NCBI GenBank assembly: GCA_964607655.1 | Contig: CAZSKX010000003.1 | Coordinates: forward strand, 4,160-68,159 | Direction of reading: 5' to 3' | DNA: 64,000 nt | Source of the DNA: an uncultured Candidatus Saccharibacteria bacterium | GTDB lineage: Bacteria; Patescibacteriota; Minisyncoccia; Phycocordibacterales; Phycocordibacteraceae | Shown here: one piece after another, positions 10,741 to 62,650 of the stretch | Numbering within the stretch: the stretch's first letter is position 1 | Layout of the letters: each line of letters opens with the position of its first letter | Notes under the pieces: generated by a model | Databases searched by the model: none | Seen by the model: only the letters and a program-made list of their open reading frames with translations | What the model was told of the DNA's origin: nothing | Position numbers and translations under genes: made by a program

Positions 10741-10856
10741 GTTCTGGCGGCTAGCTACTCTCCCTGCCGGTAAAGGCAAGTACCATCGCCGCTAGTGGGC
10801 TTAACTTCCGAGTTCGGAAAGGGATCGGGTGTGACCCCACCGCCAAGCCACCAGAA
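10741..10856 (-). rRNA. rrf: 5S ribosomal RNA
   Basis: The reverse complement 'TTCTGGTGGC...CCCGATCCCTTTCCGAACTCGGAAGTTAAGC...GAGAGTAGC...GCCGCCAGAAC' matches the bacterial 5S consensus and its helix 1 pairing. Confidence 0.85.
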
Positions 10857-11672: not shown

Positions 11673-12323
11673 CTGAACCCAGCTCGCGTACCTTTTTAAA
11701 TGGCGAACAGCCATACGCTTGGGACCTTCTCCAGCCCCGCGCTAAGGTGAGCCGACATCGAGGTGCCGAACTCCGCCGTCGCTATGGACGCTTGGGCGGA
11801 ACTAGCCTGTTATCCCCAGGGTAACTTATATCCGTTAATCTCTGGCCGCATCTAAGGCGTACCATCGGTTCACTAGACTCTGCTTTCGCATCTGCTTGGG
11901 ATGTCCCCCTCGCAGTTAAGCCCGCTTGTGCTCTTACACTATCGCCACGGTTTCCATTCGCGGCTAGCGGACCTTAATAGACTCCTCCGTTACTCTTTAG
12001 GAGGATAGCGCCCCACCAAAACTACCCGTCACGCACGGTCCCCATGTGGATCCCACATAGGTTAGGCACTGTACATTGCAAGAACGGTATTTCACTGACG
12101 ACTCCACGCCACCCGAAAGCGACGCTTCAAAGTCTCCCGTCTATTCTACGCATGCAACACGCAGGGCCAATACGAAACTGTAGTAAAGCTCCTGGGGTCT
12201 TTTCGTCTAACTACAGGTATCCGGCATCTTCACCGGAAGTGCATTTTCACCGAGCAAGTCCTCGAGACAGTTTCCCAGTCATTACACCATTCGTGCACGT
12301 CGGAACTTACCCGACAAGGAATT

Positions 12324-12523
12324 ACGCTCTTCGATTCCTTTTAGCACGCGAAGGACCATATCTTATCCCTTCTTGGCGAAGGGTTTTGACGTATGGCCTC
12401 TCATTTGAGTCAAGTTGGACGACGTACGGATTACTCCATACGCAGGTAACTTGGCGTATTTTTATTCTGTTTACTCCTACAATCGTCCTAGTCCTTCCGG
12501 ACGCGACTCGCGTCGTGTCCGGA
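12324..12523 (-). other. ~200-nt intervening sequence in 23S domain IV (E. coli ~1917-1925 equivalent)
   Basis: The conserved 'AACTATAATCGTCCTAAGGT' / 'ATTCCTTGTCGGGTAAGTTCCGAC' is interrupted. The insert contains the long hairpin 'ccggacgcgactcgcgtcgtgtccgg'. Confidence 0.45.
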
Positions 12524-13347
12524 ACCTTAGGACGATTATAGTTATCGCCGACATTCACCGGGGCTTACACAGTCCAGCATCACACCGAAGTATGGTACCG
12601 CCCGTGGTTGACCTTCCGGCATTGGTCAGGTGTCACCCCCTATACATCCTCTTACGAGTTCGCAGGGAGCTGTGTTTTTGGTAAACAGTTGCCAGGAAAA
12701 CTTTCGCTGCGGCCGCTCTTGCGAGCGGCAGGCCTTATCCCTAAGTTACGGCCGCTTTTTTGCCGAGTTCCTTGAGGACCTCTTACTCGTTCATCTAGGT
12801 CTTCTCGACCAGACCACCTGTGTCGGTTTGCGGTACGGTCGCACCTATGGTTAATGCTTAGAAGTTTTTCTTGAAACCGCGCTCTCTGCTCTTTCTCCCT
12901 CCGTAGAAGGAAATTGTACCGACGCTCGGGATAATGCGTACCGGATTTGCCTAGTACACGCCCTCACGCAAGTAACTCCAATCCAATAAGAAGCAGCAGA
13001 TACAGCCGTTCGTCACTCCATAGCCCATAAATACGGTCAGGGAATATTAACCCTGTGTCCATCGGGTGCGGCTCTCGCCATCCCCTTAGGCCCGACTAAC
13101 CCTCAGTTGATCACCATAGCTGAGGAAACCTCGGTCTTTCGATGTGCGGGGTTCTCACCCGCATTGTGGTTACTTGTACCGACATTCTCACTTCTGTACG
13201 CTCCACGCTGGGTTACCCCTTACGCTTCAGTGCGAACAGAACGCTCTCCTACCGCGTGCATTCCAGCGAAGGAATGCACACCCGCAATTTCGGCACGACA
13301 TTTAACCCCGATCATCTTCGGCGCAAGGACTCTCGATTAGTGAGCTG

Positions 13348-13390
<43 letters not shown>

Positions 13391-13966
13391 AACTGTCTGT
13401 GAGTCCTCACTTCCTTGTGATGTACTTAATGTCGATTTTGGGGCCTTAATTGGCGATCCGGGCTCTTCCCCTCTCGATCGATGGAGCTTCGCCCCCACCT
13501 TCTAACTGCCACTCGGGCAATGGGTATTCGGAGTTTGATAGGAACCACGAGATTGCTCCCTGTTGGTCCCTTCCAGTGCTCTACCCCCCATTACACTTAA
13601 TAGTGACGCCAGCCCAAAAGCTGTTTCGGAGAGAACCAGCTATTCCCAGGTTCGATTAGCTTTTCACTCCTTACCACAAGTCATCCCAACGCGTTGTACG
13701 ACGAACGGGTTCGGGCCTCCATCTGTCTTTCGACAAACTTCACCCTGCTCATGGTAAGCTCACCTGGCTTCGGGTCGTATATATCCTACCAACGCGCTAT
13801 TAACACTCGGTTTCCCTACAGCTCCGCCCCGGAAGGGCTTAGCTACGCAAGATATATCCACTCGTCGGCTCATTCTTCAATAGGCATGCCGTCACGGATG
13901 CAAGCATCCGCTCCGACCCCTTGTAAGTACACGGTTTCAGTTCTATTTCACTCCCCTCTCGGGGTG

Positions 13967-14007
<41 letters not shown>

Positions 14008-14851
14008 TAGGATGTATTTAGCCTTACCGGTTAGTTCCGGCAGATTCACTCGAGCTATTCATGTCTCGAGCTACTCAAGAATACGAACAAGAGTCGTCAT
14101 GCATTTCGCATACGGGGCCATTACCCTCTAGGGCGCTGCTTCCCAACAGCTTCTGCTATACAGACGATTGGTAACTCTTTCCATACAAGTATGGTGTTCG
14201 CATCTTACAACCCCGCTATCCGAAGATAGCGGTTTGGGCTTTTCCCTTTTCGCTCGCCGCTACTTGGGGTATCACGAGAGTCGCTTTCAATGTGCACAAA
14301 CATAATGCGCACACTGAAAGCAACTCGTATTGTTCTCTTTTCCTCTCGGTACTGAGATGTTTCACTTCCCGAGGTTCGCTCCACACAGGCGTTACCCCGT
14401 GGGTTCCAGTTCAAGCTGGAGGGTTTCCCCATTCGGACATCTACGGATCACAGGCTACAAACCGCCTCCCCGAAGCTTTTCGCAGGTTAGTCACGTCCTT
14501 CATCGCCATCCTAAGCCTAGGCATCCACCGTGCACTCTTAATTGTCTCTCATGCGGAGACCTATATACCACAATCATTATTTGCACTTTGATTACCCCGT
14601 CGCTTTCGCAACGAGGCTTTCATTTACCTTTGCTACCCAGCCTTGCTGGCTCACCAACAAGACTGGGCTATTCGTATGTCAAATGTCACGTGTCCCCTCG
14701 AAACGAAAACCGCCCCCTCGGGGCGGTTCGCGTTTACAAACGCGCGGCATTTCTGCCTATCCCCGGATTAGGTTGGTTTGTAATTTCGTAGACACGTAGA
14801 ACCGAGTATATAGGAGGCGCTAAACCCTGTCAACTTAACCCCTCATCTAAC

Positions 14852-40677: not shown

Positions 40678-42363
40678 TCACATCCTGTCCGGTGTCGGGA
40701 TGCCGAGCAGCGTGAGGCCATTCGTCATCGTGTTGGCGAAGGCCTGTGCGACGCGCTGTTTGTACGCTTCTTCAGGGCTCCCGAGCACTTGTTCGTTTGC
40801 ATAAAAAGCGTTCCAGGTAGAAGCGAGCTCAGTGAGATACGTGAGCAAGTAGTTGGGCGCGAGCTCTCGCGCTGCGCGCGCGACCACCTCGGGGTAGTGC
40901 AGGAGCGCGCGCTCGATCGCGTATGGCTCTGCCGGCTCCTCGCCCCCCTTCTCGCCGTTGGTCGCGTAGGTGAGGATCTTCTTCGCGCGCACGAGTGCGT
41001 ACTGCAGGTACGGCCCTGAGTCGCCCTCAAGCGAGAGCGACTTCTCTGGGTCGAAAATAATGTCTGACCCCGGCGACTGCCGCAGCACCATATATTTAAT
41101 CGCGCCGATCGCGACCTGTTCAGCGATGAGCGGATCCTCATTCTTCTCACTCGCCTTCTTTACAATATCTTCGATAAACCCAGCGGCAGTGATCACATTC
41201 CCCTCGCGCGAGGACATCTTACCGGTGGTTAGTCGCAAGAAGCCGTGCGGCACGTGGATGGTCTTCGCCGCGAGGAGCGGCGCGACCTCCTTCATCGCGG
41301 CAAAGATAACCTTGAAATATTCACTCTGCTCTGCGGCCGTGAGGATAATGCTCTCGTCTGACGGCCATCGCTCCTCCTTTAAGAACGCGAGGCCGAGATC
41401 CTTCGCCTCGTAGAGCGGCGTCCCGCGGCTCGTGATAAATACCCGAGTGTGGAGCCCGACCTTCTCGCCCTTATACACCACCGCGCCCTCGCTCTGTTCG
41501 AAAATGCCTTTGGCAAGCCCGTCATGTACTACCTGGATACCGCGCGGCGCCGCGTCACTATCGAAGAAGAAGAAATCAAACTTGGTGTCGAGCAGCTTCC
41601 AGATCCGCGTAAACGCCTCCATCGAGACATCGCGCCCCTTACGCCAGAGCTCCATGAGCGCGTGATCCACACCCTCGTACAGCGCCGTATTAAGCGCGTC
41701 GATCTCGGCCTTCGCCGCCTCGTCCTCTTCATAGGCCTTATTGCCCTCCGCATACGCTGTGCCGATCTGCTCAGCACTCTCTGGCTCAGCGACTCCTTTC
41801 TTCTGCAATTCCCAGATCGCCTTCGCTACGTGCGGTCCAACGTCTCCCCCGTAGGTATCGCGCGCCATCGTCGCGCCCGCATTCTCTACCAGCCGGGAGA
41901 CCGCCTCGCCGATGATCGTGCTCATCAGGTGCCCGATGTGCATCGGCTTAAAGGCGTTTGGATTCGAGTATTCGATAATCACCCGCTTACCCTCCTTCGA
42001 CTTACCCTTACCCCAGTCGCTCCCCTGTGCTACCGCCTCGGCCACTGCAAATGCCACTTGCTCGCGCGCGAGGGTGATATTGATAAACCCCGGGCCGGCC
42101 ACTTCAACTTTCGACACTTTATCGCTCAGCTTCTTCTGAATCTTCTGTGCTAGCTCCTCGGCAAGCTCTCGAGGATTCTTTCCCAGCGCCTTAGCCGCGG
42201 CCATCGCCGCGTTGGTCGTATAGTCGCCAAACTCCGCGCTCGCCGGGCGCTCCACGGCAAAAGAAACTCCTTCTCCCACCTCGCCGAGAACGGCCTTGTG
42301 TATCAGCTCCTCCATTAAGCCGAGTGTACCAGATTCGCCTGAATTATTTGAACATCTGCGCAA
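40678..42363 (-). CDS. argS: arginyl-tRNA synthetase
   Basis: Class I 'PMHIGHLMSTIIGEAV' and a C-terminal DALR anticodon-binding region. Confidence 0.9.
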   Translation of the reverse strand: MRRCSNNSGESGTLGLMEELIHKAVLGEVGEGVSFAVERPASAEFGDYTTNAAMAAAKALGKNPRELAEELAQKIQKKLSDKVSKVEVAGPGFINITLAREQVAFAVAEAVAQGSDWGKGKSKEGKRVIIEYSNPNAFKPMHIGHLMSTIIGEAVSRLVENAGATMARDTYGGDVGPHVAKAIWELQKKGVAEPESAEQIGTAYAEGNKAYEEDEAAKAEIDALNTALYEGVDHALMELWRKGRDVSMEAFTRIWKLLDTKFDFFFFDSDAAPRGIQVVHDGLAKGIFEQSEGAVVYKGEKVGLHTRVFITSRGTPLYEAKDLGLAFLKEERWPSDESIILTAAEQSEYFKVIFAAMKEVAPLLAAKTIHVPHGFLRLTTGKMSSREGNVITAAGFIEDIVKKASEKNEDPLIAEQVAIGAIKYMVLRQSPGSDIIFDPEKSLSLEGDSGPYLQYALVRAKKILTYATNGEKGGEEPAEPYAIERALLHYPEVVARAARELAPNYLLTYLTELASTWNAFYANEQVLGSPEEAYKQRVAQAFANTMTNGLTLLGIPTPDRM

Positions 42364-42402: not shown

Positions 42403-42561
42403 CTAGCTCGCCTTAAGTCGCACCTGTTCGATCAGCTTCTGCTGGTCGGCGCTCGCCTTACGCGCCACGTCTAGGTACACCTTCTTTTTCTCCCGCGAAG
42501 AGGCCTCCCGGAAGAAACGCGAAAACTCTCCGGAAGTACGGACCGGGGTCTTTTTCTTCAT
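42403..42561 (-). CDS. small basic ORF (52 aa) immediately downstream of the zeta-like kinase gene (not in ORF track, <60 aa)
   Basis: Manual translation from the ATG (complement of 42559-42561) gives 'MKKKTPVRTSGEFSRFFREASSREKKKVYLDVARKASADQQKLIEQVRLKAS*'. It starts 17 nt after the zeta stop. Confidence 0.25.
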   Translation of the reverse strand: MKKKTPVRTSGEFSRFFREASSREKKKVYLDVARKASADQQKLIEQVRLKAS

Positions 42562-42578
42562 TAAGAAAGCAAGGAATT

Positions 42579-43307
42579 TCATGGGTTTTTGAGTGCTGCT
42601 TGCAATGTATCCTTACTGTAACGCTCGGGCACATACCCGTCAATCGAGCGTATGTTTGCTTCATAACGCAGGTCACTCCCATCAATATTCTTAACGATCA
42701 GATCGACTGTGATTCGATCCCCAAACTCCGATTTGAGCTTGTTAACATTTTCTCGTGCTTGAAAGTATTGTTCGACAAACGAATCTCTCGGTATCACCCG
42801 ACCCTCTCGCTGCTCACGTGCCTGAGCGAACTTCCAAGCCTGCAACGGGTCTTGATACACATAGAGGATCTGTACGAGCCGCTCCTTCTCTAGACTTCGC
42901 TCGATGTTCTCTCGAGCTCGCTCAAGGTTGGAGAGTGTCCCATCAAAGACGTAGCTCTGATGATTATGGAGGGCCAGGTCCTGCATCTTATCGGCAAGAA
43001 TAGACGTCGCACCCTGAAAGAGGCGTGAATTCGATCCGTTATATTCTTTGAACTCCTCTCGCAACTCATCTGCGTCTATCCGCAATACGGCATCCCTCCG
43101 CCCTGCGAGCCGCTCAATAAGCCGGAATGATGACTCGGTTTTACCCGCCCCTGGCGATCCCGCCATAAAGACCGAGACCGGCTGGGCGTCGGGCGGAAAG
43201 AGATTGATATCGGTGCGCCTCTTGGCAATAGCTACTTTATTTTTGTTCGCCTTTGCAAAAGCCAGCGCTTCTTCTTGGATCCGCCGGTCCTCTTCGGTCA
43301 TGCTCAC
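42579..43307 (-). CDS. zeta-toxin-like P-loop kinase (PF06414-like)
   Basis: Walker A 'FMAGSPGAGKTE' in a roughly 240-aa zeta/PezT-like architecture. Confidence 0.6.
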   Translation of the reverse strand: MSMTEEDRRIQEEALAFAKANKNKVAIAKRRTDINLFPPDAQPVSVFMAGSPGAGKTESSFRLIERLAGRRDAVLRIDADELREEFKEYNGSNSRLFQGATSILADKMQDLALHNHQSYVFDGTLSNLERARENIERSLEKERLVQILYVYQDPLQAWKFAQAREQREGRVIPRDSFVEQYFQARENVNKLKSEFGDRITVDLIVKNIDGSDLRYEANIRSIDGYVPERYSKDTLQAALKNP

Positions 43308-43384
43308 ATTCTACTCCAGGCCCCACCACTTTCCCGCCCCGTCTTCCACCTCCAGACTGTGCTCTTAGTCTTAAGGGTCATAAG

Positions 43385-43972
43385 TCATTTTGTCACTATA
43401 ACCGTCCCCACAAGCTCCACGTGTTTGTTCAGCAAATAATTTGCTACCCGCGGCAATTCATCATAGATATCAATCGATCCATTCGTAATGATCTGCTTTG
43501 GCTTTCTTTTGCCGTCAACTTTGTCTATTACGTAGCGGTACCTCACACCAATCGAGATCACCGAGATGATGCCTTGGGCGTCAACCGAGACAGAAACTCC
43601 TGATCTGCCTCGATGGGCTATGTACTGTCTCATGGCCTCTAAAATTGAAAACTCGGAAGAATGATCAATTTGCTCCCAAAACAAAAAAAGATTCCTTGAA
43701 TTTTGCTCAAGCTCCTTCTTGAAAGAAGGATTCCAAGAGACTTGATAAGGCGCTCTGTTAAGGCCTGATTGGATGTTGATAATCTGCAACATCATTTGGG
43801 AAGCCGCGTGCAATTCAAATATGCACGCATCCAAAAAATAATAGAATTCATTCTGTATTGAGGTTCTCTTCCGAGGATCGAATTCTTTGCTTCGCAACTT
43901 TTCAAAAAAGAAACGGGCTGCATCAATTTTAGTATTGAAAGCTTCAGACAAAGATTCCACTGTCTCGACCAT
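43385..43972 (-). CDS. hypothetical protein (195 aa), AT-rich, upstream partner of zeta-like kinase
   Basis: I recognise no motifs. Its codon composition resembles the foreign island. Confidence 0.4.
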   Translation of the reverse strand: MVETVESLSEAFNTKIDAARFFFEKLRSKEFDPRKRTSIQNEFYYFLDACIFELHAASQMMLQIINIQSGLNRAPYQVSWNPSFKKELEQNSRNLFLFWEQIDHSSEFSILEAMRQYIAHRGRSGVSVSVDAQGIISVISIGVRYRYVIDKVDGKRKPKQIITNGSIDIYDELPRVANYLLNKHVELVGTVIVTK

Positions 43973-44016
43973 ATATCTAGTCTCTAGACTTTTTAAGTCA
44001 CATCCAGAAAGTCCCT

Positions 44017-45180
44017 CTATCGGTTCCCCTTTGCTCGATTATGCGTTTTGCAAAGCATCTGGCAGTTTGCCGCATCTGTCGCCCCGCCCTTACTCCAGGC
44101 CGCCACGTGATCAGCGTCCATGTCGGCCAGACCCCAGATCTTTTCTTTATTGGCGTCGTGTCCCATTGCACACAGCGGGCAATTTGATTCTCCCTTCTCC
44201 TTGGTCGCTGCAGTCTGCGCCTCATAGACTGAGCGCTTGGTCGCCTCGTCAAACATGCGCACGTCCAGCAGCTTGGTATCCACTTCACCACCCAATACGT
44301 ACTCAAAAATCCCTTTTCGACTCTTGACGTGCGCATCTCCATAGAGGCGTTGAACCGCTGCGGAAACTTTCGCAGGATCGTATGATTGCTTGTGATACGT
44401 CTTATATAGTCGATTCCACTCGAGTCCCTTCATTTCACTCTCAACGTCGATAAACGTCGTCGATACCCAATTTATCACCGTATCGAAATGTTTCTTCAGG
44501 CCAGTAATATCAGCATCTTGTCGGTGCTGGCTCATATAGCTATCAATCGCTCCATCAGAAACCCAGTCGAGGGCTTGCTCGAGATAAGCCTGGCGCTTCA
44601 CCTCACCTGAAATATAGGCACTCCACTTCTGGACGTTCGCATTCTGGCTGTTACTGAACTCCTCGCGCGCACGTGTCACAAACGGACCAGAGTACACGGC
44701 ATTCAATATCTCTTGCTCCGTTAGAGGGACTCCGGCAATATTGATCGTCCTGAACCAGTCTTTGATTTCAGGCTCTTCGCCCTCGCATATATATATGAGC
44801 AATTTCGTATTCAAGATCATCTCTCGTTGTACATCGGCCATGCCAGTGTAGTATTGCTCGTGCCCATTTTGATCCTTCACAGCAAACTTTCCAGTTACAA
44901 ACCGGCCAATACTGGTAATGCGCTGCTGTCCGTCGAGAACCTCGAGCTTCTTCTCGCCGGTCCGATTGAAATACATCACACCAATTGGATAGCCTTTTAC
45001 AATAGAATCGACCACTCCCACGTCACGCTTGCCATCGGCGTAGATGTAGTTGCGCTGGTACTCAGGCTGGATCGTGAGCGTGCCCGATAGACCAAAGAGC
45101 CCCTTGCCTTCTAGCTCATTGTACTCAAAGCCATCGACGACTTCTCGAATTGTAATGTCTGTTTTCAGTGCAGTATTCAT
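44017..45180 (-). CDS. DUF262 (ParB-like, DGQQR motif) + C-terminal HNH nuclease; GmrSD-like/type IV-like restriction endonuclease, short form
   Basis: 'LEVLDGQQRITSI' DUF262 signature and a C-terminal HNH 'CPLCAMGHD...DHVAAWSKGG...NCQMLCKTHNRAKGN'. Confidence 0.7.
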   Translation of the reverse strand: MNTALKTDITIREVVDGFEYNELEGKGLFGLSGTLTIQPEYQRNYIYADGKRDVGVVDSIVKGYPIGVMYFNRTGEKKLEVLDGQQRITSIGRFVTGKFAVKDQNGHEQYYTGMADVQREMILNTKLLIYICEGEEPEIKDWFRTINIAGVPLTEQEILNAVYSGPFVTRAREEFSNSQNANVQKWSAYISGEVKRQAYLEQALDWVSDGAIDSYMSQHRQDADITGLKKHFDTVINWVSTTFIDVESEMKGLEWNRLYKTYHKQSYDPAKVSAAVQRLYGDAHVKSRKGIFEYVLGGEVDTKLLDVRMFDEATKRSVYEAQTAATKEKGESNCPLCAMGHDANKEKIWGLADMDADHVAAWSKGGATDAANCQMLCKTHNRAKGNR

Positions 45181-46286
45181 GTCGTAGTTCTTCTATGTTT
45201 AACAAACAATCTCTTAAATGTCTCCTTGCCGTTTACATAGGTGCTTCTGCCGTAAACGCCCTCAGCATCTTGACTTACGCCTCGGTTGGCGCCAACGATC
45301 TCAAATTGGCTTGGTGAATACTTGTCGAGGAAATTTATCGGTACGCCCATAACGCCCTGGTAATCCTTGGGTATCGCTGCAATATAAGGTACGTCGATGG
45401 CATCATAGTTGTCATATCTGTCGTAAGCTGACTTTCCTCTCATTTTTTTATTAAATTTCAAATTCTCCTCGAGACTCATCAGGTCTAATGGCAAGTGTCG
45501 ACGCCCATGATCGAGATTCGTATACCACCTGACGCCCATTACTCGCTGATAATACTTTCCTTCCCGAACCTCGCCGGTGAATTTAGACATGTCTACAGTT
45601 GTTTTTGGCACTTCAAACTCCCTATCCCCACTCGAAATACTTGGTCCAAGCCACATCAAATTCGATTTAATGAGCGGAAAAATCTCTGTATATGTAATAG
45701 CGTTTATATGCCCGATAATTAAATATTGTTTATCAAAATTTATCAGTTGTGCCACATAGGGACGAAACAGGCTAAATGGAGGGTTCGTGACAACAATGTC
45801 GGATTCTTTAAGCAATTCGATGCATTCCCGACTTCGGAAGTCGCCGTCGCCCTCTAGCGGCGACCATTCATTGTTTTTATTTGCTTTCAATTGCTGCGCG
45901 ATATCCTGCAAAGTGAAAGACCCATCACCATCCACATCGCCGACTTCGTTGATAATGAACTTATTGGCGGTAATTTTTGGTCGGCCTTTGACGGGTTCGA
46001 GCGTCACGTCATCTCCAAATAGTCCGAGCTGTGTATTCGCAACAGGCGACGGTTTGTAGCTCGTTGTAATAAGCCGCTTTAGCCCAAGGCGTTTGAAATT
46101 AAGTACGAAGTAGCGAAAGAAATTGCTCTCGAAAGGGTCGTCGCAGTTGCAGTAGATAACCTTATCCTTAAAGGTGCTGGAATCGAACTCGAGATATGCC
46201 TCGATCTCTTTTTGAATATCGCTGTACTGCGTATAGAACTCGTCATTCTTTACCTTTTTGGCATTGGTGAGGTTACTGTTGGCCAT
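45177..46286 (-). CDS. N6-adenine DNA methyltransferase, EcoRI-methylase-like family
   Basis: 'IVVTNPPFSL' motif IV (NPPF) and an N-terminal 'DEFYTQYSDI' region. A 4-nt overlap with the downstream nuclease gene suggests an operon. Confidence 0.6.
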   Translation of the reverse strand: MANSNLTNAKKVKNDEFYTQYSDIQKEIEAYLEFDSSTFKDKVIYCNCDDPFESNFFRYFVLNFKRLGLKRLITTSYKPSPVANTQLGLFGDDVTLEPVKGRPKITANKFIINEVGDVDGDGSFTLQDIAQQLKANKNNEWSPLEGDGDFRSRECIELLKESDIVVTNPPFSLFRPYVAQLINFDKQYLIIGHINAITYTEIFPLIKSNLMWLGPSISSGDREFEVPKTTVDMSKFTGEVREGKYYQRVMGVRWYTNLDHGRRHLPLDLMSLEENLKFNKKMRGKSAYDRYDNYDAIDVPYIAAIPKDYQGVMGVPINFLDKYSPSQFEIVGANRGVSQDAEGVYGRSTYVNGKETFKRLFVKHRRTTT

Positions 46287-46516
46287 ACCTAATAGCCAAA
46301 TGATCCCACAATTTCTTCATTTTTGGAATGCGGCTGAGCTCGGTAGTCTCGGCAAGCCCGAATCCCCAGCTCATTGATTTTTCATCCGAAGGGGTATACC
46401 ACCTTTGTATTTCTATTGAAGGGCACCTCCGTGGGTTTCGTCCCCGGGCGGTGCTTTTCTTTTATACTCGAGCTTGGCCGTCAGAACGGCGATAGTGGAG
46501 CCGATCGCGAACACAT

Positions 46517-47161
46517 CTATACGCTGAAGATGTTAATTCTTCGGGCTGCCCGCAAGGTGTAGTCATTCTTTTTCAAAAAATCTTCTATCCCCGCAATCGC
46601 CTTCTTGGGTGCCATGGTTGTCATAAAGTCGTCGAGGGATTCGAAGCGAAATATCGTCTCGTCCGGTATCTCAGCAATTTCTGCATAGCCTTGGTGGGTT
46701 TTCAGAGCATTGTAGGCAGCTCGCTTCTCTTGTCTCTCGTCACCGTCGCATGCGTCAAAGGCAATCTCCGCATCAAAAAAGGTTCCTTCTTCGGCTGGTT
46801 CGAGAAAAATGATATGGCCACCTTTTTTCGTGACGCGAATCGCTTCGTCAATCGCCCTCGGCATTTCTTCAATCGGCACATGGTGCAAGGAAAGAGTAAA
46901 TAAAACCGCATCGAACTGCTCGTCCGGAAAGCCAAGCCTTTCTGCTTTACCAAGTACGTAAGTGATGTTTTGAGCTGCATTGTGCGTCCTGGCCCAATCA
47001 AGGAGCGCAGTATCTGGCTCCATTGCGGTCAGCCAGGCACACTTCTTCGCTATCTCAACCGAACGTGAGCCATTCCCACACCCGATTTCGAGAATAGACT
47101 TCCCGAACAACGGCATCACCGTTTCGATACTGCTCAAATAGTCGTCCTTCAACCTTTTCAT
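46517..47161 (-). CDS. class I SAM-dependent methyltransferase (small-molecule type)
   Basis: Motif I 'ILEIGCGNGSRS' and motif II/III spacing. Confidence 0.7.
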   Translation of the reverse strand: MKRLKDDYLSSIETVMPLFGKSILEIGCGNGSRSVEIAKKCAWLTAMEPDTALLDWARTHNAAQNITYVLGKAERLGFPDEQFDAVLFTLSLHHVPIEEMPRAIDEAIRVTKKGGHIIFLEPAEEGTFFDAEIAFDACDGDERQEKRAAYNALKTHQGYAEIAEIPDETIFRFESLDDFMTTMAPKKAIAGIEDFLKKNDYTLRAARRINIFSV

Positions 47162-47285
47162 ACGCGAACTATAGCAAACGGGCCGATAAGGGTCCTTAGA
47201 TTATTTGCCGTTGCAACAAACGCCTAACAGGAGTAGCCTGTTCGGAGATCATCAGTTCACTCACGCTCAGCAAAGAGGAGGTTCT

Positions 47286-49561: not shown

Positions 49562-50821
49562 CTAGTTGAACGATTCGGGGATCGGATGTGCGACCGCGAG
49601 CTCGCGTACCTGTGCCTTGGCAGCCTCCGGTGCCAGGCGCTTCTTGAGTACGTCGAGCATGATGCTCGCGACCTCGCAACTGTCGGCAGCCGAGAAGCCG
49701 CGGGTCGTGATAGCAGGCGTCCCGAAGCGGATCCCTGATGGATCCATCGGCTTCCTCGGGTCGTCAGCGATCACGTTCTTATTGACCGTGATCCCCGCCT
49801 CGTCGAGAAGCTTCTCCGCCACAGCACCCGTGATGCCAAAGGAGCCGAACACGTCCGCCAGGATGAGGTGGTTGCTCGTCCCGCCGGTGATCAAGCGCAC
49901 TCCGCCCTCTTTGAACACCTCGGCCATCGCCCTGGCGTTCTCGAGAACCTGCTTCGCATACACCTTGAACGACGGCTGCAGAGCCTCGTTAAAGGCGATC
50001 GCCTTGGCTGCGATCTGGTGCATGTGAGGCCCGCCCTGGAGCCCCGGGAAGACCGACTTGTCGATCGCCTTCGCGATCGCCTCGCTCTCCCGCGTGAGGA
50101 TCATCCCGCCGCGCGGACCCCGCAGGGTCTTGTGCGTCGTGGTGGTCATCACGTCGAAGCCGTAGTCGAAGGGGTTCGCTACGGCCCCGCCGGCGATGAG
50201 GCCAGCGATGTGTGCGATGTCCATCACCGCGACAGCGCCGACTTCGCGCGCGATCTCGACAATCTTCGCGTAGTCGAGCTCGCGCGGATACGCCGAGAAG
50301 CCCGCGAGGATCATCTTCGGCTGCACGCGCTTGGCCGTCTCGAGCATCGCCTCGTAGTCGATCTCACCCGTCTCGACATCCTTCATCCCGTAACGGACGA
50401 AGTTGTAGATCTTGGCGAGCTGCGTCACCGGGTGACCATGCGTGAGATGCCCACCATGGCTGAGCTCCATCCCGAGGATGGTGTCCCCGGGCTTCAGGAG
50501 CGCGTTGTACATCGCGGCGTTCGCGTTCGCGCCACCCAAGGGCTGCACGTTCGCGAAGGCAGCGCCGAAGAGCTTCTTCGCGCGCTCGATCGCGATCGTC
50601 TCGATCTGGTCCATGAACTCCTGGCCGCCGTAGTAGCGCGCTCCAGGATACCCTTCGGAGTACTTGTTGGTCGCTGAGGAGGCCATCGCCTCCATCACTG
50701 CCGCCGAGACGTGGTTCTCGCTCGGGATAAGCTCCAGGCCCTTGGCCTGGCGCTGGTCTTCGCCAATGAGCGCATCGTAGATGCGCTCGTCCTCTTGTTT
50801 GATATGCCTGTAGTCACGCAT
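49562..50821 (-). CDS. glyA: serine hydroxymethyltransferase (start trimmed to 'MRDYRHIKQEDERIYDAL')
   Basis: 'LELIPSENHVSAAVMEAMAS...NKYSEGYPGARYYGG' and the PLP-lysine region 'TTTTHKTLRGPRGG'. The ORF-track start at 51001 would overlap tmk. Confidence 0.9.
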   Translation of the reverse strand: MRDYRHIKQEDERIYDALIGEDQRQAKGLELIPSENHVSAAVMEAMASSATNKYSEGYPGARYYGGQEFMDQIETIAIERAKKLFGAAFANVQPLGGANANAAMYNALLKPGDTILGMELSHGGHLTHGHPVTQLAKIYNFVRYGMKDVETGEIDYEAMLETAKRVQPKMILAGFSAYPRELDYAKIVEIAREVGAVAVMDIAHIAGLIAGGAVANPFDYGFDVMTTTTHKTLRGPRGGMILTRESEAIAKAIDKSVFPGLQGGPHMHQIAAKAIAFNEALQPSFKVYAKQVLENARAMAEVFKEGGVRLITGGTSNHLILADVFGSFGITGAVAEKLLDEAGITVNKNVIADDPRKPMDPSGIRFGTPAITTRGFSAADSCEVASIMLDVLKKRLAPEAAKAQVRELAVAHPIPESFN

Positions 50822-50852
50822 GAGCGCAGTGTACCCCGGTAGACGGCTTCGC

Positions 50853-51557
50853 TCAACGCGCGGGCTCTCTCGAGAGCAGAGACTCCACAGTCGTACGAAC
50901 CTCTTCGTGGATATCCTCGATTGAACGCATTTCTTCCCCTTGCACACAGTCGATAATGCTCCAGTTCGGCTGTCTCTCTGCGAGCCAGTTTGCTGTCGCA
51001 TGACTTTGTTCGAGATAGGTTCGATCTTCCTCTACCGTATCCTTCACTCCCGCACCGAGGAGCTGGTTCTTTGCCGCACGCTTCTTTTGCAAAAGTTCTA
51101 GACTTGTTTCGACCGGCACGCGCAGATAAATGATGTGATCAGGCTTGGGGACATGGAGCACTTCGTGCTCCATGCGATCAAGCCACTTGAGGAACGTTTC
51201 TCTTTCTTTTTCGTCTGCTATCTTCCCCCCTTGGTGGATCTGATTGGAGCTAGCGAATCGATCTGCAATCACCACCTTTCCCTCTTCTAGAGCTTTCTGT
51301 ATGTCTGGAGACGCTTCGAGCCTATCAAGCGCATAGAGTGGCGAAGAAATCTTTGGGCTTGTATGCAAAAAATCCCCCTCTTTACCTGCCAAACACTCTG
51401 CCAAAAGAGCCCCAAAAAAACTCTCGCTGTACCTTGGGAAAGAGATCGTCATCGACTCGACCCCGTCTGCGCTAAGCATCTCCGCAAGCAACCGTGACTG
51501 GGTCGCCTTGCCGGACCCGTCGTTACCGTCGAGCACGATAAATACCCCTTTGCGCAT
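50853..51557 (-). CDS. tmk: thymidylate kinase
   Basis: 'GVFIVLDGNDGSGKATQ' P-loop and the LID region. Confidence 0.85.
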   Translation of the reverse strand: MRKGVFIVLDGNDGSGKATQSRLLAEMLSADGVESMTISFPRYSESFFGALLAECLAGKEGDFLHTSPKISSPLYALDRLEASPDIQKALEEGKVVIADRFASSNQIHQGGKIADEKERETFLKWLDRMEHEVLHVPKPDHIIYLRVPVETSLELLQKKRAAKNQLLGAGVKDTVEEDRTYLEQSHATANWLAERQPNWSIIDCVQGEEMRSIEDIHEEVRTTVESLLSREPAR

Positions 51558-57103: not shown

Positions 57104-57180
57104 TGGGGTGGTCGATGGGGCACGATCCCACAACCTTCGGTACCACAAACCGATGCTCTACCAATTGAGCTACGACCACC
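57104..57180 (-). tRNA. tRNA-His (GUG)
   Basis: Reverse complement: G(-1)GTGGTCG-TA-GCTCAATTGGTAGAGC-A-TCGGT-TTGTGGT-ACCGA-AGGTT-GTGGGATCGTGCCCCAT-CGACCAC-C-CCA. The G-1:C73 pair is diagnostic of tRNA-His. Anticodon GTG. Confidence 0.85.
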
Positions 57181-57183
57181 ATA

Positions 57184-57675
57184 TTACTCACATTTTAAGA
57201 ATCTCGCGCGCTCCTCTTCGTAGTGATGCACCAGGAAATGGCAGTTATTACAAAGCCAAGCGAGGTTCTCCAGCGTGTTATTTTTCCGGTTCTTATCGAT
57301 GTGATGCACCGCCAAAACCCGGTAATCCTCAGTCTTACATAAACGACAGATTTTTGGAACCTTGTACCGCTCCATGGTCGCTCGATAGACAAACTCCCCC
57401 GTCTTAAAATTTTTATGCGCCGAACCGATGTAGAGCTGATTACGCCACTGTGTCTGACAACTTTTTGAGCAGAAATACTTGCCACTTTTTGATCCTTTGA
57501 GTCCCTTCTGCGTTTTGTAGGTCAACTTTTCGCACACAGCACACTTCACCTGTTCACCATTACGCATGCTCAAATGATGGCATTCTGCTGAGCAGAATTT
57601 ACCATTACCCGCCTTGAGCCAAGATGGTTTAGCATAGAAAGATTTACCGCATCGGCCGCATTTCACCTCTGCCAT
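57184..57675 (-). CDS. free-standing HNH endonuclease with N-terminal Cys-rich zinc-finger region
   Basis: 'VLAVHHIDKNRKNNTLENLAWLCNNCHFLVHH' HNH motif and Cys pairs 'CGRCGK...CSAECHH', 'CAVCEK...CSKSC'. Local GC is lower than its surroundings. Confidence 0.65.
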   Translation of the reverse strand: MAEVKCGRCGKSFYAKPSWLKAGNGKFCSAECHHLSMRNGEQVKCAVCEKLTYKTQKGLKGSKSGKYFCSKSCQTQWRNQLYIGSAHKNFKTGEFVYRATMERYKVPKICRLCKTEDYRVLAVHHIDKNRKNNTLENLAWLCNNCHFLVHHYEEERARFLKCE

Positions 57676-57747: not shown

Positions 57748-58278
57748 CTAATACTTCGGATTCTCCTCCGGCACTCCCGCGAGGTGGTTCGCGAGGCGCG
57801 CGAGCGCGAAGAGGAGTGAGGAGAGACGGTTCATGTACGCGCGCGTTTCGGGCGTAAGCTCACGCAGCCCGCCCTCGACCACCGCTACGGTACGCCTCTC
57901 AGCGCGGCGCGAGAGGGTCCGCGCGACGTCGAGGAGCGCGGAGAGCTCGGTGCCGCCCGCCACCGAGAAACCTTTGAGGGGTGGAATCTCTTTTTCAATC
58001 CCGTTTACGATCTCTTCTACCGCCTTCACGTCCTCTTCCCCGAGGTGCTTGTCGGCCCCCGCCACCTCAGCCTGAACGATAAATAATTTCTCCTGAACAT
58101 CCCGCAATGTTTCGCGAATGCGCGGCTCATCTGTCTGCGTACGGACATATCCAATGAACGCATTCAGTTCATCGAGTGAACCGAGCGCTTCGGGTAATTC
58201 TGAGGCTTTAGAAATGCGGGGCTGATCAGTCCCAAACGTTTTGGTGGTACCTCCATCGCCTTTGCCTGTGTAGAGCAT
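57748..58278 (-). CDS. ATP:cob(I)alamin adenosyltransferase, PduO type
   Basis: 'MLYTGKGDGGTTKTFG...LGSLDELNAFIG' PduO/MMAB N-terminal signature. Confidence 0.75.
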   Translation of the reverse strand: MLYTGKGDGGTTKTFGTDQPRISKASELPEALGSLDELNAFIGYVRTQTDEPRIRETLRDVQEKLFIVQAEVAGADKHLGEEDVKAVEEIVNGIEKEIPPLKGFSVAGGTELSALLDVARTLSRRAERRTVAVVEGGLRELTPETRAYMNRLSSLLFALARLANHLAGVPEENPKY

Positions 58279-58300
58279 AGATAGGTCTATTGTACATAAG

Positions 58301-58330: not shown

Positions 58331-58392
58331 GCGGGTAGACCGCGAACCTTGAATGAACGAGTAATCACTGTTTACAACCAGAGGGGAGACGA

Positions 58393-59763
58393 ATGAGCAG
58401 TCACGTGGCTGAAGCTCTGTGGGCAACCGCCTGCGGAGAGATCGAAAGCAGACTTTCTGAGAAAGATTTCCACACGTGGATCTTGGCACTCGAAGCAAGA
58501 TCCTTCGATGGCCAAACGCTGGTCCTGGGAGCGCCTTTCGGGCTCTTCCGTGACCGCGTGAAGCAGTCGTTCCTTCCCGTCATCGAGACCTGCGTCTCGG
58601 TGGCGGCCAAGTGCGCCTGCGAGGTCACGATCGAGATCGGCCAGCTGAAGAACCTTTCAGCGACGCGACGAGAACGTCCTCTTCGGTGGACGCCGTCACC
58701 AAAGCGCGCGGGAGTTCCCACTTCTGCCAAAGTCAGATCGCTCCACGAGAAGACGTTCGACGGCTTCCTCGTCGGCGAGAGCAATCGGCTCGCCTATCTG
58801 GGCGCACGACAGCTCGCAGAAGCAACCGCTCCCGAGGGCAACAATCTGTTGTTTCTCTATGGCGGCGCGGGTCTCGGGAAAGCGCACCTGCTGCTCGCGA
58901 CCGCGCATGCTCTGCGCAGCCGCGGGAAGAAGGCGCTCTACTATCGAAGCGGGGACTTTGTCCGTCACGCGACCGCCTCGCTCGAGAGCGGACGGACGGA
59001 CGTGTTCCACGCCGAGATTCGGACCTGCGATGCCCTTCTCCTGAGCAAGGTGCAGCTTCTCTCCGGCAAGCAACAGGTCCAACAGGAGCTGTGTCGTGCC
59101 ATGAGTCTGTTGCACCAGGATGGAAAGCTGGTCGTGATCACGAGTGATCGATCGCCCGCCGAACTCGACGACTTCGATCCGGAGCTACAGAGACAGTTCG
59201 CGAGCGCTCCGTTCCTTGAAGTTGGCCCTCTCGACCAAGAGCTTCGGCTGCGCATCCTGCGCACCAAGCTCACCGAGAAGGGGCTTCGCCTCGAGGAGCA
59301 TGTTCTCGAGCGCCTGGCGACCCAGCTCCAGGGCAGCGTCCGCGAGATCGAAGGGTTGGCTTCGCATTTGCAGGCGGCGAATGGTCAAGAGCTGCTTGCC
59401 ACTGACGGAGAGCAGCTTGAAACCCTGATTCTGCCACACCTGGCGAGGCGAGGACCCGTCGATCTCGATGTCATCATCGACAACGTGGCGTGGATGCACG
59501 GCCTCACGCGGGATGAACTCCTGTCACGAGACCGTTCTCGCCGCATCGCGTGGCCCCGGCACAACGCCGCCTACCTGTGCCGAAAGCTTACCAAAGCTTC
59601 CCTCCCCGAGATCGGCGTCGCGCTTGGCGGGAGGAACCACACCTCGATCCTGCGCGCCGTACGATCGGTTACCGAGCGCCAGCTGAATGACTCGAGTTTC
59701 GCCAGCAAACTGCAGCAGCTGGAGAAGGCGATCGGGTCGGTGCCAGCGCTACGTGTTGCGTAA
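58393..59763 (+). CDS. DnaA-family protein with degenerate Walker A (GKA) and Walker B (SK for DD)
   Basis: All four DnaA domains are present: N-terminal domain I-like, AAA+ 'LFLYGGAGLGKAHLL', 'DALLLSKVQLL', sensor 'VVITSDRSP', 'SVREIEGL', and a C-terminal DNA-binding 'GGRNHTSILRAV'. Confidence 0.75.
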   Translation: MSSHVAEALWATACGEIESRLSEKDFHTWILALEARSFDGQTLVLGAPFGLFRDRVKQSFLPVIETCVSVAAKCACEVTIEIGQLKNLSATRRERPLRWTPSPKRAGVPTSAKVRSLHEKTFDGFLVGESNRLAYLGARQLAEATAPEGNNLLFLYGGAGLGKAHLLLATAHALRSRGKKALYYRSGDFVRHATASLESGRTDVFHAEIRTCDALLLSKVQLLSGKQQVQQELCRAMSLLHQDGKLVVITSDRSPAELDDFDPELQRQFASAPFLEVGPLDQELRLRILRTKLTEKGLRLEEHVLERLATQLQGSVREIEGLASHLQAANGQELLATDGEQLETLILPHLARRGPVDLDVIIDNVAWMHGLTRDELLSRDRSRRIAWPRHNAAYLCRKLTKASLPEIGVALGGRNHTSILRAVRSVTERQLNDSSFASKLQQLEKAIGSVPALRVA

Positions 59764-59826
59764 CACCAAATACTGAAGGGCGGTCCTTGGAGGAGGACCG
59801 CCCTTTCCTTTTGTCGCTTTCTTATA

Positions 59827-60531
59827 TTATCTATCAACCTTGCGTACGATACAGAGCGGTGTTTGTTCTGACGATTGGCCGAGCGGATTATCCCGGAACA
59901 CTTCCCTACAAAAGTCATCGGTGATAGCGGGCGACGACTTCCCGAGAATCGCCACGCCAAGATCGTTCGCGTCGATTATCACCACTTCGTGCTGCAGTAA
60001 CTTGGCGAGCTCGCGGGCCACATTGTCCGGATCCTTTGGGCCCAGTTTTGCGTAGTGGTTAAATGGTGGAAGCGTATAGTCACAAGGACCATCAATGGCA
60101 TTGATGTTATTCCCTACTACCTTATAGAAAACTCCACGCACCCCAAAAGGTTTGGTAAGTGCTGAGGCAAGCGCCGCAAAGAGCATGCGTGGTGCACCCG
60201 CCTCACGGAGCGCGAGCTCCATCGTCCACGGGCTTCCAAGTCCGATCCCGTGTGGAGACTTGTGCACAAACTTCACCAACAGCTTAGCGAGCCAGGAGGG
60301 CGCAATCTCGGCGATCGGGTACGCCCTTCCCTGACTGATCGCCACCACCCGCTCACTGATAAAGAGCATGTCGCCGGGGCGTAGGTGCGCTGTCGCGTAC
60401 TTCTTACAGACCTCTTTAATGTCGTCTTTGTCGGTAATGACATGCGTCTTGATCGGGAGGCGTGCGTAGGACGCACCCAAAACATCTATAATTAATTTCT
60501 TTCCTGCGTTTGGGACGAGATCTGATGGCAT
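59827..60531 (-). CDS. CofE-like protein (F420-0:gamma-glutamyl ligase family)
   Basis: 'MLFISERVVAISQGRAYPI' and overall CofE-like length and pattern. Confidence 0.45.
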   Translation of the reverse strand: MPSDLVPNAGKKLIIDVLGASYARLPIKTHVITDKDDIKEVCKKYATAHLRPGDMLFISERVVAISQGRAYPIAEIAPSWLAKLLVKFVHKSPHGIGLGSPWTMELALREAGAPRMLFAALASALTKPFGVRGVFYKVVGNNINAIDGPCDYTLPPFNHYAKLGPKDPDNVARELAKLLQHEVVIIDANDLGVAILGKSSPAITDDFCREVFRDNPLGQSSEQTPLCIVRKVDR

Positions 60532-60534
60532 GTC

Positions 60535-61962
60535 TCAAATATGCGCGCTCTGGTCGCGGGGGTCAAATATCGAAGGCGCAAGCTTCTCCCCTTTGAGGAT
60601 CGCGGCGATCCGCTGACTGCCATAGATTGAGGGAAGGATCCCTACTCCGTTACATCCGAGGTTGTAGAGCAGGCTCTCGTTGAGCGGTTCGACTCCCACG
60701 CGACGCACCCCGTTTGGGGTGTAGCCCATAAGTCCGTGCCAGCAGAACACATAGGACGGGTCTTCTTCCGGATACGTCGCGTAGTTGCTCTTCATGAAGT
60801 CATCAATCTTCTCTCGCATTGACTCGTCACAGGAATGCCCCCGTGAATACGTTGCCCCATTCGGCAACACCTTCTCTGGCCCGCCGGTACAAACAAGGTT
60901 GTACGAGCTCTGCCCTTCGTGCTCGTGTGGTCTACGTGTTAGGTAGAAGTAGGTTTCGCCGGTTGGATCGCCGTTGCGCTCGCGCGACGACGAGAAGTAA
61001 CTGATCGCGATCGGCGCACGATTAAGTGGCTCGAGGTAGCCTGACATGTAGCCGATCCTCCCCGCAACCGTATGGTGAAAGCTCGTGTCGATGTCCGGCC
61101 CGCTCGTGTTCTCGATGGTAAATCCCTCAAAGCCATTCGTCGCGAGGACGACGCGCGCTGCCCGCACCTTATGCTCCCGTATCTCGAGCATCGCTCCAGC
61201 AGCGTTAAGACTCACTGCACGCACAGGACTGCCCTCAAAAAAGCGAAACCGCTCTGGGTAGCGCACCGAGAGATAGCCGAGCAACTCTTCGGTAAAGAGA
61301 GCACTGTTGGTGCAACCTTTTTGATAGGCGAGCGCTGCGATGTACTCCGTATTGGTGGTCTCGAGTAAGTTGCGCAGGTCTGCCTCCGGTATAAGTTTGT
61401 AAAGGTCGCCGTATTCCTCGTTAATCGACCCGCGCTCAGTCCACTCTTCGGCGATAAGAACGCCTTCGGCCGGCAAGCCGCCCATAACACGATAGCGATT
61501 ATTCTGGAGATGCTGGTCTACCTGCGCAAGACTGGTGAGACCCGCGTAGCCCGTGAAGCGGTATACCGGCGTCTGTAGCGACGCTTCAGCGACAATCTCG
61601 TCGAGCAGCATCCACCCCGACTCAACCGCTTTCTGTCCATCAATAGCGAGTTCGAGACCAAACTCGTCGACGAGCTCGGTAAGCGGTCGTTCGAAGTAGC
61701 TCGTGATCTGCCCGGCGTTGTACCCTGTGGCGCCATGCGCAATCTTATCCGCCTCGATAAGCACGACTCGCTTGTCGGTATCGCGTAATGTAAAAAAGGC
61801 CGTCGTCACACCCGCGATCCCTCCCCCGACCACCACGACGTCGGTGTCGACATCTTCGGTAAGCGGCGTCACGGGACGAGTACGATTTAACTGCTTAATC
61901 CAAGGAGAATGGTTGGGGATCATGCCCTGCCATTTTACCGCATCCAGACTATGCACAGGCAT
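60535..61962 (-). CDS. FAD-dependent oxidoreductase (DAO family)
   Basis: N-terminal 'DVVVVGGGIAGVTTAF' dinucleotide-binding motif. Confidence 0.6.
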   Translation of the reverse strand: MPVHSLDAVKWQGMIPNHSPWIKQLNRTRPVTPLTEDVDTDVVVVGGGIAGVTTAFFTLRDTDKRVVLIEADKIAHGATGYNAGQITSYFERPLTELVDEFGLELAIDGQKAVESGWMLLDEIVAEASLQTPVYRFTGYAGLTSLAQVDQHLQNNRYRVMGGLPAEGVLIAEEWTERGSINEEYGDLYKLIPEADLRNLLETTNTEYIAALAYQKGCTNSALFTEELLGYLSVRYPERFRFFEGSPVRAVSLNAAGAMLEIREHKVRAARVVLATNGFEGFTIENTSGPDIDTSFHHTVAGRIGYMSGYLEPLNRAPIAISYFSSSRERNGDPTGETYFYLTRRPHEHEGQSSYNLVCTGGPEKVLPNGATYSRGHSCDESMREKIDDFMKSNYATYPEEDPSYVFCWHGLMGYTPNGVRRVGVEPLNESLLYNLGCNGVGILPSIYGSQRIAAILKGEKLAPSIFDPRDQSAHI

Positions 61963-62161: not shown

Positions 62162-62650
62162 TTATGCAGCGACGACCTCCTCAGCCTTCTCCTCTACGGG
62201 CGTCTCCTCCGCCACGACTTCTGCCTCCTCCGTCGGGAGGGTCTCGTCGCTCTTCACATTCATCATGCGGGCGTTACGGAGCTGGCGACGCATCGCCTTG
62301 GCGGCCTTCTCGCGGATAAAGTAGAGCTTGGCACGGCGGACCTTCGAGCGCTTAACGATCTCGATCGAGTCGATCAAGGGAGAGTAGAGCGGGAAGATCT
62401 TTTCCACACCCACACCCGAGAGCGTAGCGCGCACCGTGAAAGTGCCGCCCGCCTCCTTGCCGTGCTTCACGGCGATCACAAGCCCTTCAAAGACCTGCTT
62501 ACGCGCATTCTTAATAGTCTTTTCCTTTTTATCAGCACCGCGGCCCTTCTTGAGCTCGATGATGTTCTGAGTGACACGCACCGTATCGCCCGGGCGAACA
62601 CCCAGTGCGGCGCGACCCTCAGCGTTAACAGGGGTAAGTACTTTCTGCAT
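62162..62650 (-). CDS. rplS: 50S ribosomal protein L19 (with acidic C-terminal extension)
   Basis: '[12 protein letters not shown]...[11 protein letters not shown]'. Confidence 0.9.

Follow-up and report, generated by a model that had tools for sequence, protein, structure and literature searches.

A Binatia-type DnaA with a degenerate nucleotide site at a non-origin locus of a Kaiserbacteria-like genome

DnaA is the textbook example of an ATP-switch initiator. In experiments it is difficult to study its DNA binding apart from its ATP-dependent activities. To our knowledge, every DnaA that has been studied (E. coli, Aquifex, B. subtilis) needs the Walker A and Walker B residues and the arginine finger for origin opening. 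Some bacteria have two dnaA genes, such as Chlamydia with DnaA1 and DnaA2, and some of these copies lie away from dnaN. The second copies that we know of in other bacteria keep canonical Walker motifs. Hda has neither domain I nor domain IV, keeps the nucleotide site and the arginine finger and works through the sliding clamp. The eukaryotic origin recognition complex (ORC) contains inactive AAA+ subunits, in which the initiator-clade fold is kept as a scaffold or DNA-binding module. Here, we describe a dnaA-like gene in a 64-kb stretch of a 71-kb contig (CAZSKX010000003.1, assembly GCA_964607655.1); this whole stretch of 64,000 nucleotides is referred to as the window. The gene is a horizontally acquired, Binatia-type dnaA that is fixed at one non-origin site, between an adenosyltransferase gene and rplS, in members of the Candidate Phyla Radiation (CPR). 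Its product is predicted from the residues of the nucleotide site to be ATPase-dead.

Motif positions were fixed residue by residue against the DnaA proteins of B. subtilis (8BTG) and Aquifex (1L8Q/2HCB). The gene and the motifs that carry the argument are as follows.

58393..59763, plus strand: dnaA-like gene, 456 amino acids (aa) plus stop codon; Binatia-type DnaA xenologue with a degenerate AAA+ active site
58861..58884, plus strand: Walker A, GGAGLGKA, aa 157-164; the Mg-coordinating Thr is replaced by Ala164
59035..59049, plus strand: Walker B, LLLSK, aa 215-219; both acidic residues are gone (S218, K219)
59185..59199, plus strand: Box VII, LQRQF, aa 265-269; the arginine-finger position is Gln268
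59341..59343, plus strand: sensor II Arg317, retained

In the alignment GLGKA stands opposite GLGKT or GTGKT, with the codon GCG (58882-58884) for A164. The Walker A pattern GxxGxGK[ST] is broken at this residue, which is a Thr in all other family and outgroup sequences that we tabulated. Walker B no longer fits the pattern hhhhDD: LLSKVQ is found opposite LLIDDIQ or LLLDDVQ, and S218 and K219 are encoded by AGC (59044-59046) and AAG (59047-59049). The arginine finger, R285 in E. coli, is replaced by Q268 (CAG, 59194-59196), where LQRQF lies opposite LRSRF or LVSRF. In E. coli numbering the changes are T179A, E204G, V211T, D235S, D236K, R245Q, R285Q and L290P, and the equivalents of K178, D269, R334, R399, P423, H434 and T435 are kept. 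Thus, the sensor residues are in place, namely the sensor I Asp (D252) and the sensor II Arg (R317), as is the Walker A Lys (K163). We had considered the loss of R245 in the B-motif as a strong argument and gave it less weight, because the aligned residue in B. subtilis DnaA is Gln. An initial annotation, made from the letters alone, had reported the open reading frame, which lies on the plus strand as given above, and the changes from GKT to GKA and from DD to SK, which the alignment to canonical DnaA structures confirms. Its prediction of an ATPase-dead protein is supported beyond the original claim, since further AAA+ residues and the arginine finger, which it had missed, are lost as well.

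A sequencing error does not account for the motif loss, because related degeneracies are found in orthologues that share the synteny but come from two other sequencing runs. These are the nearest database relatives, P0002 with 76% identity (SRR29729392) and P0003 with 67% identity (SRR30597359), which stem from separate runs. Both share the gene order of the window, with the adenosyltransferase gene (minus), the dnaA-like gene (plus), an F420-ligase-like gene (minus), a flavin adenine dinucleotide (FAD) oxidoreductase gene (minus) and rplS (minus). P0002 and P0003 keep GKT; their Walker B motifs read IDN and VEN, so that the second Asp is gone, and the arginine finger is changed to His (DHL and DHF). 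P0051, P0053 and P0074 likewise have no arginine finger. H235R and the loss of F237 and R268 are common to all six degenerate proteins and suggest that the loss occurred once. P0074 (L088 and L089) is a very divergent degenerate member of the clade, in which Walker B also reads SK and the arginine finger is Cys. It is encoded just downstream of five type IV secretion system (T4SS) pilin genes on a low-GC CPR contig.

Despite the degenerate active site the four-domain architecture of DnaA is present. It is seen in the Pfam matches of the 456-aa protein (DnaA_N 8-69, Bac_DnaA 120-270, Bac_DnaA_C 359-426), in the full-length alignment to 8BTG, in an AlphaFold model and in Foldseek matches. The model is confident, with a predicted local distance difference test (pLDDT) score of ~90 across domains I, III and IV, and its best structural matches in Foldseek are DnaA structures. 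For domain III, template modelling scores of 0.87-0.88 are reached against the corresponding domains of 8BV3 and 2Z4R.

58393..58644, plus strand: domain I, DnaA_N fold, aa 1-84 (Pfam PF11638; pLDDT ~90)
58645..58746, plus strand: domain II linker, aa 85-118, predicted to be disordered (pLDDT <50 for residues 85-117)
58747..59457, plus strand: domain III, AAA+, aa 119-355 (Pfam PF00308); fold kept, active site degenerate
59458..59760, plus strand: domain IV, DnaA-box-binding helix-turn-helix, aa 356-456 (Pfam PF08299)
59623-59661, plus strand: domain IV signature GGRNHTSILRAV, present within domain IV

The DnaA equivalog model TIGR00362 aligns end to end with the protein (306.4 bits, E 3.7e-91), but the score stays below the cut-off of 343.9 bits. 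On this scale the six degenerate proteins reach 250-330 bits, the intact family members 364-396 bits and a canonical Paceibacteria DnaA 477 bits. Domain I, the sensors and the signature GGRNHTSILRAV, which the initial annotation had listed as retained, are present, and the AAA+ fold is kept; at conserved positions the AAA+ core has decayed.

This decay was counted over the 174 positions that are conserved at >=95% among the Binatia-hosted members of the clade described below, and dN/dS, the ratio of nonsynonymous (dN) to synonymous (dS) substitution rates, was calculated by the Nei-Gojobori method.

Changed conserved positions, window protein: AAA+ core 30/80, lid 4/17, domain I 4/29, domain IV 2/48
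Changed conserved positions, P0035 (motif-intact CPR orthologue): AAA+ core 3/80, lid 1/17, domain I 3/29, domain IV 2/48
dN/dS, window versus L087 (dS 0.65): overall 0.225, AAA+ core 0.26, domain I 0.22, domain IV 0.12
dN/dS, Binatia pair L081 versus L084 (similar dS): overall 0.109, AAA+ core 0.11, domain I 0.06, domain IV 0.05

From these values the constraint is relaxed about 2-fold, most in the ATPase core, yet it is far from neutral. Domain I, the AAA+ fold and above all domain IV are under purifying selection. Domain IV carries the DnaA signature and the base-contact residues (equivalents of R399, P423, H434 and T435), and 46 of its 48 clade-conserved positions are kept. Its substitutions D433N and H439R are clade-wide. 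The motif-intact CPR orthologue P0064 (L090) shows the reverse decay, with 15 of 48 conserved positions changed in domain IV (GGRNHTTVILAI, RSRHLLWPRNIA) and 6 of 80 in the AAA+ core.

The term paralog, which had been used for this gene, is not borne out. The protein is a xenologue that belongs to a Binatia-type clade and not a duplicate of the host's own DnaA. A database search returned ~80 proteins with >=41% identity, after which identity falls to ~32%. An exhaustive HMMER scan of 1.84 billion representatives gave three relatives above 340 bits and no more; the next score is 223 bits. In a neighbour-joining tree the clade with P0004-P0072 is monophyletic to the exclusion of canonical DnaAs with 100% bootstrap support. 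The window protein shares the clade signatures APFGLFRDR, RRVAWPRH and GGRNHTS(I/V)LRAV, and the whole clade carries R281G in addition to D433N and H439R. Most members come from metagenome-assembled genomes labelled Candidatus Binatia or 'Deltaproteobacteria', where they are annotated as 'chromosomal replication initiator protein DnaA', and there GKT, DD and SRF are intact. In five Binatia loci that span the full depth of the clade (L081, L084, L085, L091, L092) the synteny is conserved: genes for NuoB/F/G and a 275-aa protein are followed by an intergenic region of ~250-630 bp, dnaA, and then glycosyltransferase and amidase genes, with a 170-180-aa gene after dnaA in four of the five loci. 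The Binatia-type dnaA is never found next to dnaN in these loci. Some of the upstream intergenic regions hold two or three near-consensus DnaA boxes, and a clear GC-skew switch was not seen at the gene in four Binatia loci, in which the skew is weak. Among plasmids and phages no closer relatives were found; the best tblastn identity in PLSDB and a phage collection is <=31%, and these hits are ordinary dnaA genes.

The host of the window was assigned from genes outside the dnaA-like gene. The isoleucyl-tRNA synthetase (IleRS) of the window is closest to proteins named Paceibacterota, Patescibacteria and Kaiserbacteria, including Kaiserbacteria CG10, and these nearest sequences include genes on the contigs that carry P0064 and P0035. 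The 16S gene is unlinked from the 23S rRNA gene, which has ~670 nt extra. Thus, from the rRNA genes and the affinities of IleRS, the host is a Kaiserbacteria-like member of the CPR. Among the 120 closest sequences in the IleRS tree, the carriers of the dnaA-like gene group together in a clade with 6 members (58% bootstrap) or 8 members (82% bootstrap). We had considered a patchy distribution as a sign of dispensability and rejected this idea, as the carriers are a small exclusive clade.

The gene occupies one insertion site in five related CPR loci, namely the window, L082/L083, L086, L087 and L090. P0035 (Kaiserbacteria CG10, GCA_002773355.1) and P0064 (Paceibacterota, MFA7302662.1) are motif-intact members of the clade at the same site, which is preceded there by thyA, folA, rplK, nusG, secE, a SIMPL gene, two small genes and the adenosyltransferase gene. 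The borders of the site in the window are the following.

57748..58278, minus strand: PduO-type cobalamin adenosyltransferase gene (Cob_adeno_trans), divergent; left border, kept in all five syntenic CPR loci
59827-60531, minus strand: F420_ligase-like gene (weak Pfam match)
62162..62650, minus strand: rplS (ribosomal protein L19), the right syntenic anchor, which directly adjoins the dnaA-like gene in L082

Only in the window, L086 and L087 is the dnaA-like gene separated from rplS by the F420-ligase-like and FAD-oxidoreductase genes (59827-61962, minus strand). An F420-ligase-like gene is found beside rplK and folA in the locus of Kaiserbacteria CG10 (L082 3833-4579), and because of this different placement the F420 context is a lineage-specific rearrangement. 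The cobalamin and F420-like flanks to which the initial annotation pointed are real, but they reflect only the insertion site that is conserved in the five CPR genomes.

The G+C content of the dnaA-like gene is 0.62 in the window versus 0.54-0.59 in the neighbouring genes, and across hosts it is 0.60-0.64 in genomes of 0.54-0.57. In the DnaA tree the CPR copies are nested among Binatia sequences, with a weakly supported branching order. The window protein has 24-26% identity to canonical Paceibacteria DnaA, which is ~75% conserved across named Paceibacteria families and is encoded in locus L093 with rnpA beside dnaA-dnaN, near T4SS genes. Such a neighbourhood of canonical dnaA and T4SS genes is frequent in Paceibacteria (PMC12102498). 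In a profile search with CPR DnaAs the best 120 of 7999 matches include Taylorbacteria, Nomurabacteria and Paceibacterota, and no Kaiserbacteria. That five related CPR genomes carry the gene in the same place, away from an origin, argues for one old transfer between phyla. The simplest history is a single transfer from a Binatia-like donor to the ancestor of a small CPR clade, in which the gene was then inherited vertically.

The locus is not an origin, as had been noted from the missing dnaN. A tblastn search of the 64-kb window with two canonical DnaAs and a Paceibacteria DnaN found neither dnaN nor a further DnaA. DnaA boxes do not cluster in the window or in the flanking intergenic regions; 14 near-consensus boxes are dispersed over the window versus 8 expected by chance. 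A GC-skew switch is absent as well, and the skew is negative throughout the window. The dnaA-like gene runs opposite to nearly all of its neighbours and to the leading strand deduced from the skew. It has conserved expression signals of its own.

58291..58300, plus strand: conserved TGTACATAAG element directly upstream of the -35 hexamer, containing the palindrome TGTACA; kept in the window, L086, L087 and the distant L090
58301..58330, plus strand: sigma-70-type promoter TTGACA - 18 nt - TAAGAT (promoter scan, 10/12 matches), in the intergenic region shared with the divergent adenosyltransferase gene
58383..58388, plus strand: ribosome-binding site GGGGAG, 4 nt before the ATG, read from the sequence; orthologues start at the same Met
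59775..59806, plus strand: intrinsic terminator (terminator scan) with a 14-bp G+C-rich stem and a T-rich tail; the stem is kept in L086 and L087

The -35 and -10 hexamers are kept in L086, L087, L082 and L090. The TGTACATAAG element may be an operator.

How could a DnaA with such an active site be used? We think that the protein is probably a nucleotide-independent regulator that binds DnaA boxes, with a canonical DnaA initiating replication from elsewhere in the genome. Binding of DnaA boxes without nucleotide switching had been proposed for this gene from the start. With the replaced residues productive Mg-ATP binding would be lost, ATP would not be hydrolyzed, and an ATP- and arginine-finger-dependent filament able to open the origin would not form. 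If the ATP cycle and the filament are lost, what remains is most likely a nucleotide-independent recognition of DnaA-box-like sites. The protein might then act as a transcription factor on its presumed DNA targets and/or occupy DnaA boxes and thereby modulate initiation. Initiation itself would be left to a canonical Paceibacteria DnaA, encoded by a presumed second gene at an rnpA and dnaA-dnaN locus elsewhere in the genome. Several observations weigh against this reading. A canonical dnaA of the host was not seen within the 64 kb of the 71-kb contig, and no DNA target of the protein was found. The only conserved box-like element near the gene (TGTACATAAG; reverse complement TTATGTACA) has 2 mismatches to the DnaA box, and the clade-wide D433N and H439R in domain IV imply that the binding specificity may differ from TTATCCACA. 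The loss of ATP binding is a prediction from residues, and the protein still has the Walker A Lys and the sensor II Arg. The gene is also kept at one locus in every known member of the host clade, and reduced CPR genomes seldom keep redundant genes, both of which would also fit an essential role.

These last two points lead to the opposite reading, in which the Binatia-type gene replaced the native dnaA by xenologous displacement and is now the sole initiator. It would need neither ATP binding or hydrolysis nor an arginine finger to start replication, and might be helped by other factors or by simple box binding and recruitment of the helicase through domain I. The intact open reading frames, the purifying selection in all domains, the almost untouched domains I and IV and the lack of another DnaA or DnaN in the 64-kb window are in line with this. 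So is the position of the degenerate P0074 beside T4SS pilin genes, where the canonical dnaA of Paceibacteria often sits (PMC12102498). However, the need for Walker A, Walker B and the arginine finger in all studied DnaAs speaks against it, as does a locus without DnaA-box cluster, GC-skew switch or dnaN, in which the gene is opposed to its neighbours and to the skew-inferred leading strand. In the same hosts the rate of evolution is much higher for the xenologue than for IleRS (48-52% versus 68-73% identity); the canonical Paceibacteria DnaAs have ~75% identity across named families. Of the conserved AAA+ core positions of the xenologue, 37% are changed. We therefore regard a start of replication by a foreign DnaA without a nucleotide switch as unlikely; the same holds for a DnaA-independent route in which the protein serves as an origin-marking factor. 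The proposal of a degenerate initiator in a reduced genome, which the initial annotation had offered as its second option, is thus a minority reading. The AAA+ fold and domain I are retained under selection, and this would also suit a decoy that co-assembles with canonical DnaA filaments or caps them via domains I and III and acts as a dominant-negative brake, for which site binding would be secondary. As judged from the structures 2HCB, 3R8F and 8BTG, a protomer without an arginine finger or bound ATP could not extend an AAA+ filament. Against such a decoy stand the 24-26% identity to host-type DnaA, the fact that the strongest constraint is on domain IV and not on domain III, and the 30 of 80 changed core positions, which include interface residues (equivalents of L290 and of the R227 region). 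The changes in core and interface make a specific hetero-oligomerization doubtful, and we consider an inhibitory decoy rather improbable.

A transferred gene that slowly decays without any role would explain why dN/dS is about twice that of the Binatia pair at similar dS (0.225 versus 0.109), why catalytic residues were lost progressively from P0003 and P0002 to the window protein, and why the TIGR00362 score is below the cut-off. A non-functional relic would hardly keep full-length open reading frames in at least three species at dS 0.65-0.9, where dN/dS is 0.22-0.33 overall and 0.12-0.22 for domain IV alone. Conservation extends to the promoter, the start codon and the terminator, all but 2 of the 48 conserved positions in domain IV are unchanged, and the predicted fold is confident. 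Together, this makes a relic very improbable. The G+C content of the gene above that of its neighbours could finally point to an artefact of sequencing or assembly or to a mis-binned Binatia contig. CPR-type rRNA genes, tRNAs and ribosomal protein genes lie on both sides of the gene, the same junctions occur in four other independent assemblies, and the degenerate motifs are common to independent orthologues. The independent syntenic loci already refute an artefact, which we consider practically negligible.

The lineage described here amounts to a natural dissection of DnaA: the ATP machinery is dismantled residue by residue, and selection has left the DNA-binding domain and domain I nearly unchanged. 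Should a canonical DnaA be present alongside it, an initiator would have been turned into a pseudo-ATPase DNA-binding regulator after an inter-phylum transfer into a minimal genome, and this would reveal the usefulness of the nucleotide-free part of DnaA. If none coexists, a bacterial chromosome could start replication without the ATP cycle of DnaA. The analysis also delimits the Binatia-type DnaAs as a discrete clade, whose genes are never adjacent to dnaN, and it documents gene flow from Binatia to the CPR for a core informational gene.

Other features of the window are independent of this gene. The rRNA genes lie at 218-1683, 10742-10855 and 10954-14551 (all minus strand), so that ~9 kb of protein-coding genes lie between the 16S gene and the 23S-5S pair. 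Compared with the 2925-nt Rfam model, the 23S match has an excess of ~670 nt, which suggests an insertion or intron. Insertions and introns are known in CPR rRNA genes. A tRNA gene at 10401-10526 (minus strand) spans 126 nt in Rfam for a 71-nt model and is not called by ARAGORN; since the span exceeds the model, it may carry an intron. A low-GC island (0.42-0.51) is found at ~42500-47200 between argS (40678-42363) and glyA/SHMT (49562-51001). The products of its genes are a zeta toxin, a Cthe_2314-like HEPN protein, a GmrSD_N+HNH endonuclease, an EcoRI-like adenine methyltransferase and an S-adenosylmethionine (SAM) methyltransferase. It looks like an inserted defence island, because argS and glyA are near neighbours in L090. 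A stand-alone HNH endonuclease gene (57184-57675, minus strand, G+C 0.46) lies beside tRNA-His (57104-57179); L082 and L090 share the synteny but lack this gene, so that it was probably inserted beside the tRNA gene recently.

A search of the literature on ATPase-dead DnaA, Kaiserbacteria DnaA and DnaA paralogues gave no comparable protein, and the only relevant item was PMC12102498. A pseudo-ATPase DnaA xenologue thus is a variant for which we found no description in the searchable literature, and its relation to the known systems can be summarized as follows. With the canonical DnaAs of B. subtilis (8BTG), Aquifex (1L8Q/2HCB) and E. coli, the window protein shares the four domains, the initiator-type AAA+ core, the sensors and the domain IV contacts. 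It differs from them in Walker A, Walker B, the arginine finger and the equivalents of E204, V211, R245 and L290, and identity is ~25-32%. The gene is also not placed beside dnaN or rnpA and has no box cluster or skew switch. Measured against the DnaA equivalog, the protein agrees in architecture, sensors and domain IV, but not in profile score, Walker A, Walker B or the arginine finger. It belongs to the Binatia-type clade, with 41-64% identity, the shared signatures and the substitutions D433N, H439R and R281G. However, the Binatia members keep GKT, DD and SRF in another synteny, while in the window protein, which is encoded by a CPR bacterium, the ATP site is lost.

A regulatory use of a DnaA-family AAA+ module is known from Hda (HdaA), and there is a weak match to TIGR03420 (79.6 bits) and a structural match to 3BOS. 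The score is far below the cut-off of 194.8, and the window protein has domains I and IV, so it is not a member of the Hda family. Hda is rather the reverse case, since in the window protein the DNA-binding domains are kept and the nucleotide site is lost. The helper ATPases of the IstB/DnaC type do not include it either (NF038214, 42.7 bits versus a cut-off of 200). Compared with second dnaA genes elsewhere, for example in Chlamydia, the copy described here is foreign and catalytically dismantled, and the canonical copy of its host is presumed. The pseudo-ATPase subunits of eukaryotic ORC offer an analogy only: they come from another domain of life, are part of an obligate hetero-oligomer and have no DnaA-type domain IV.

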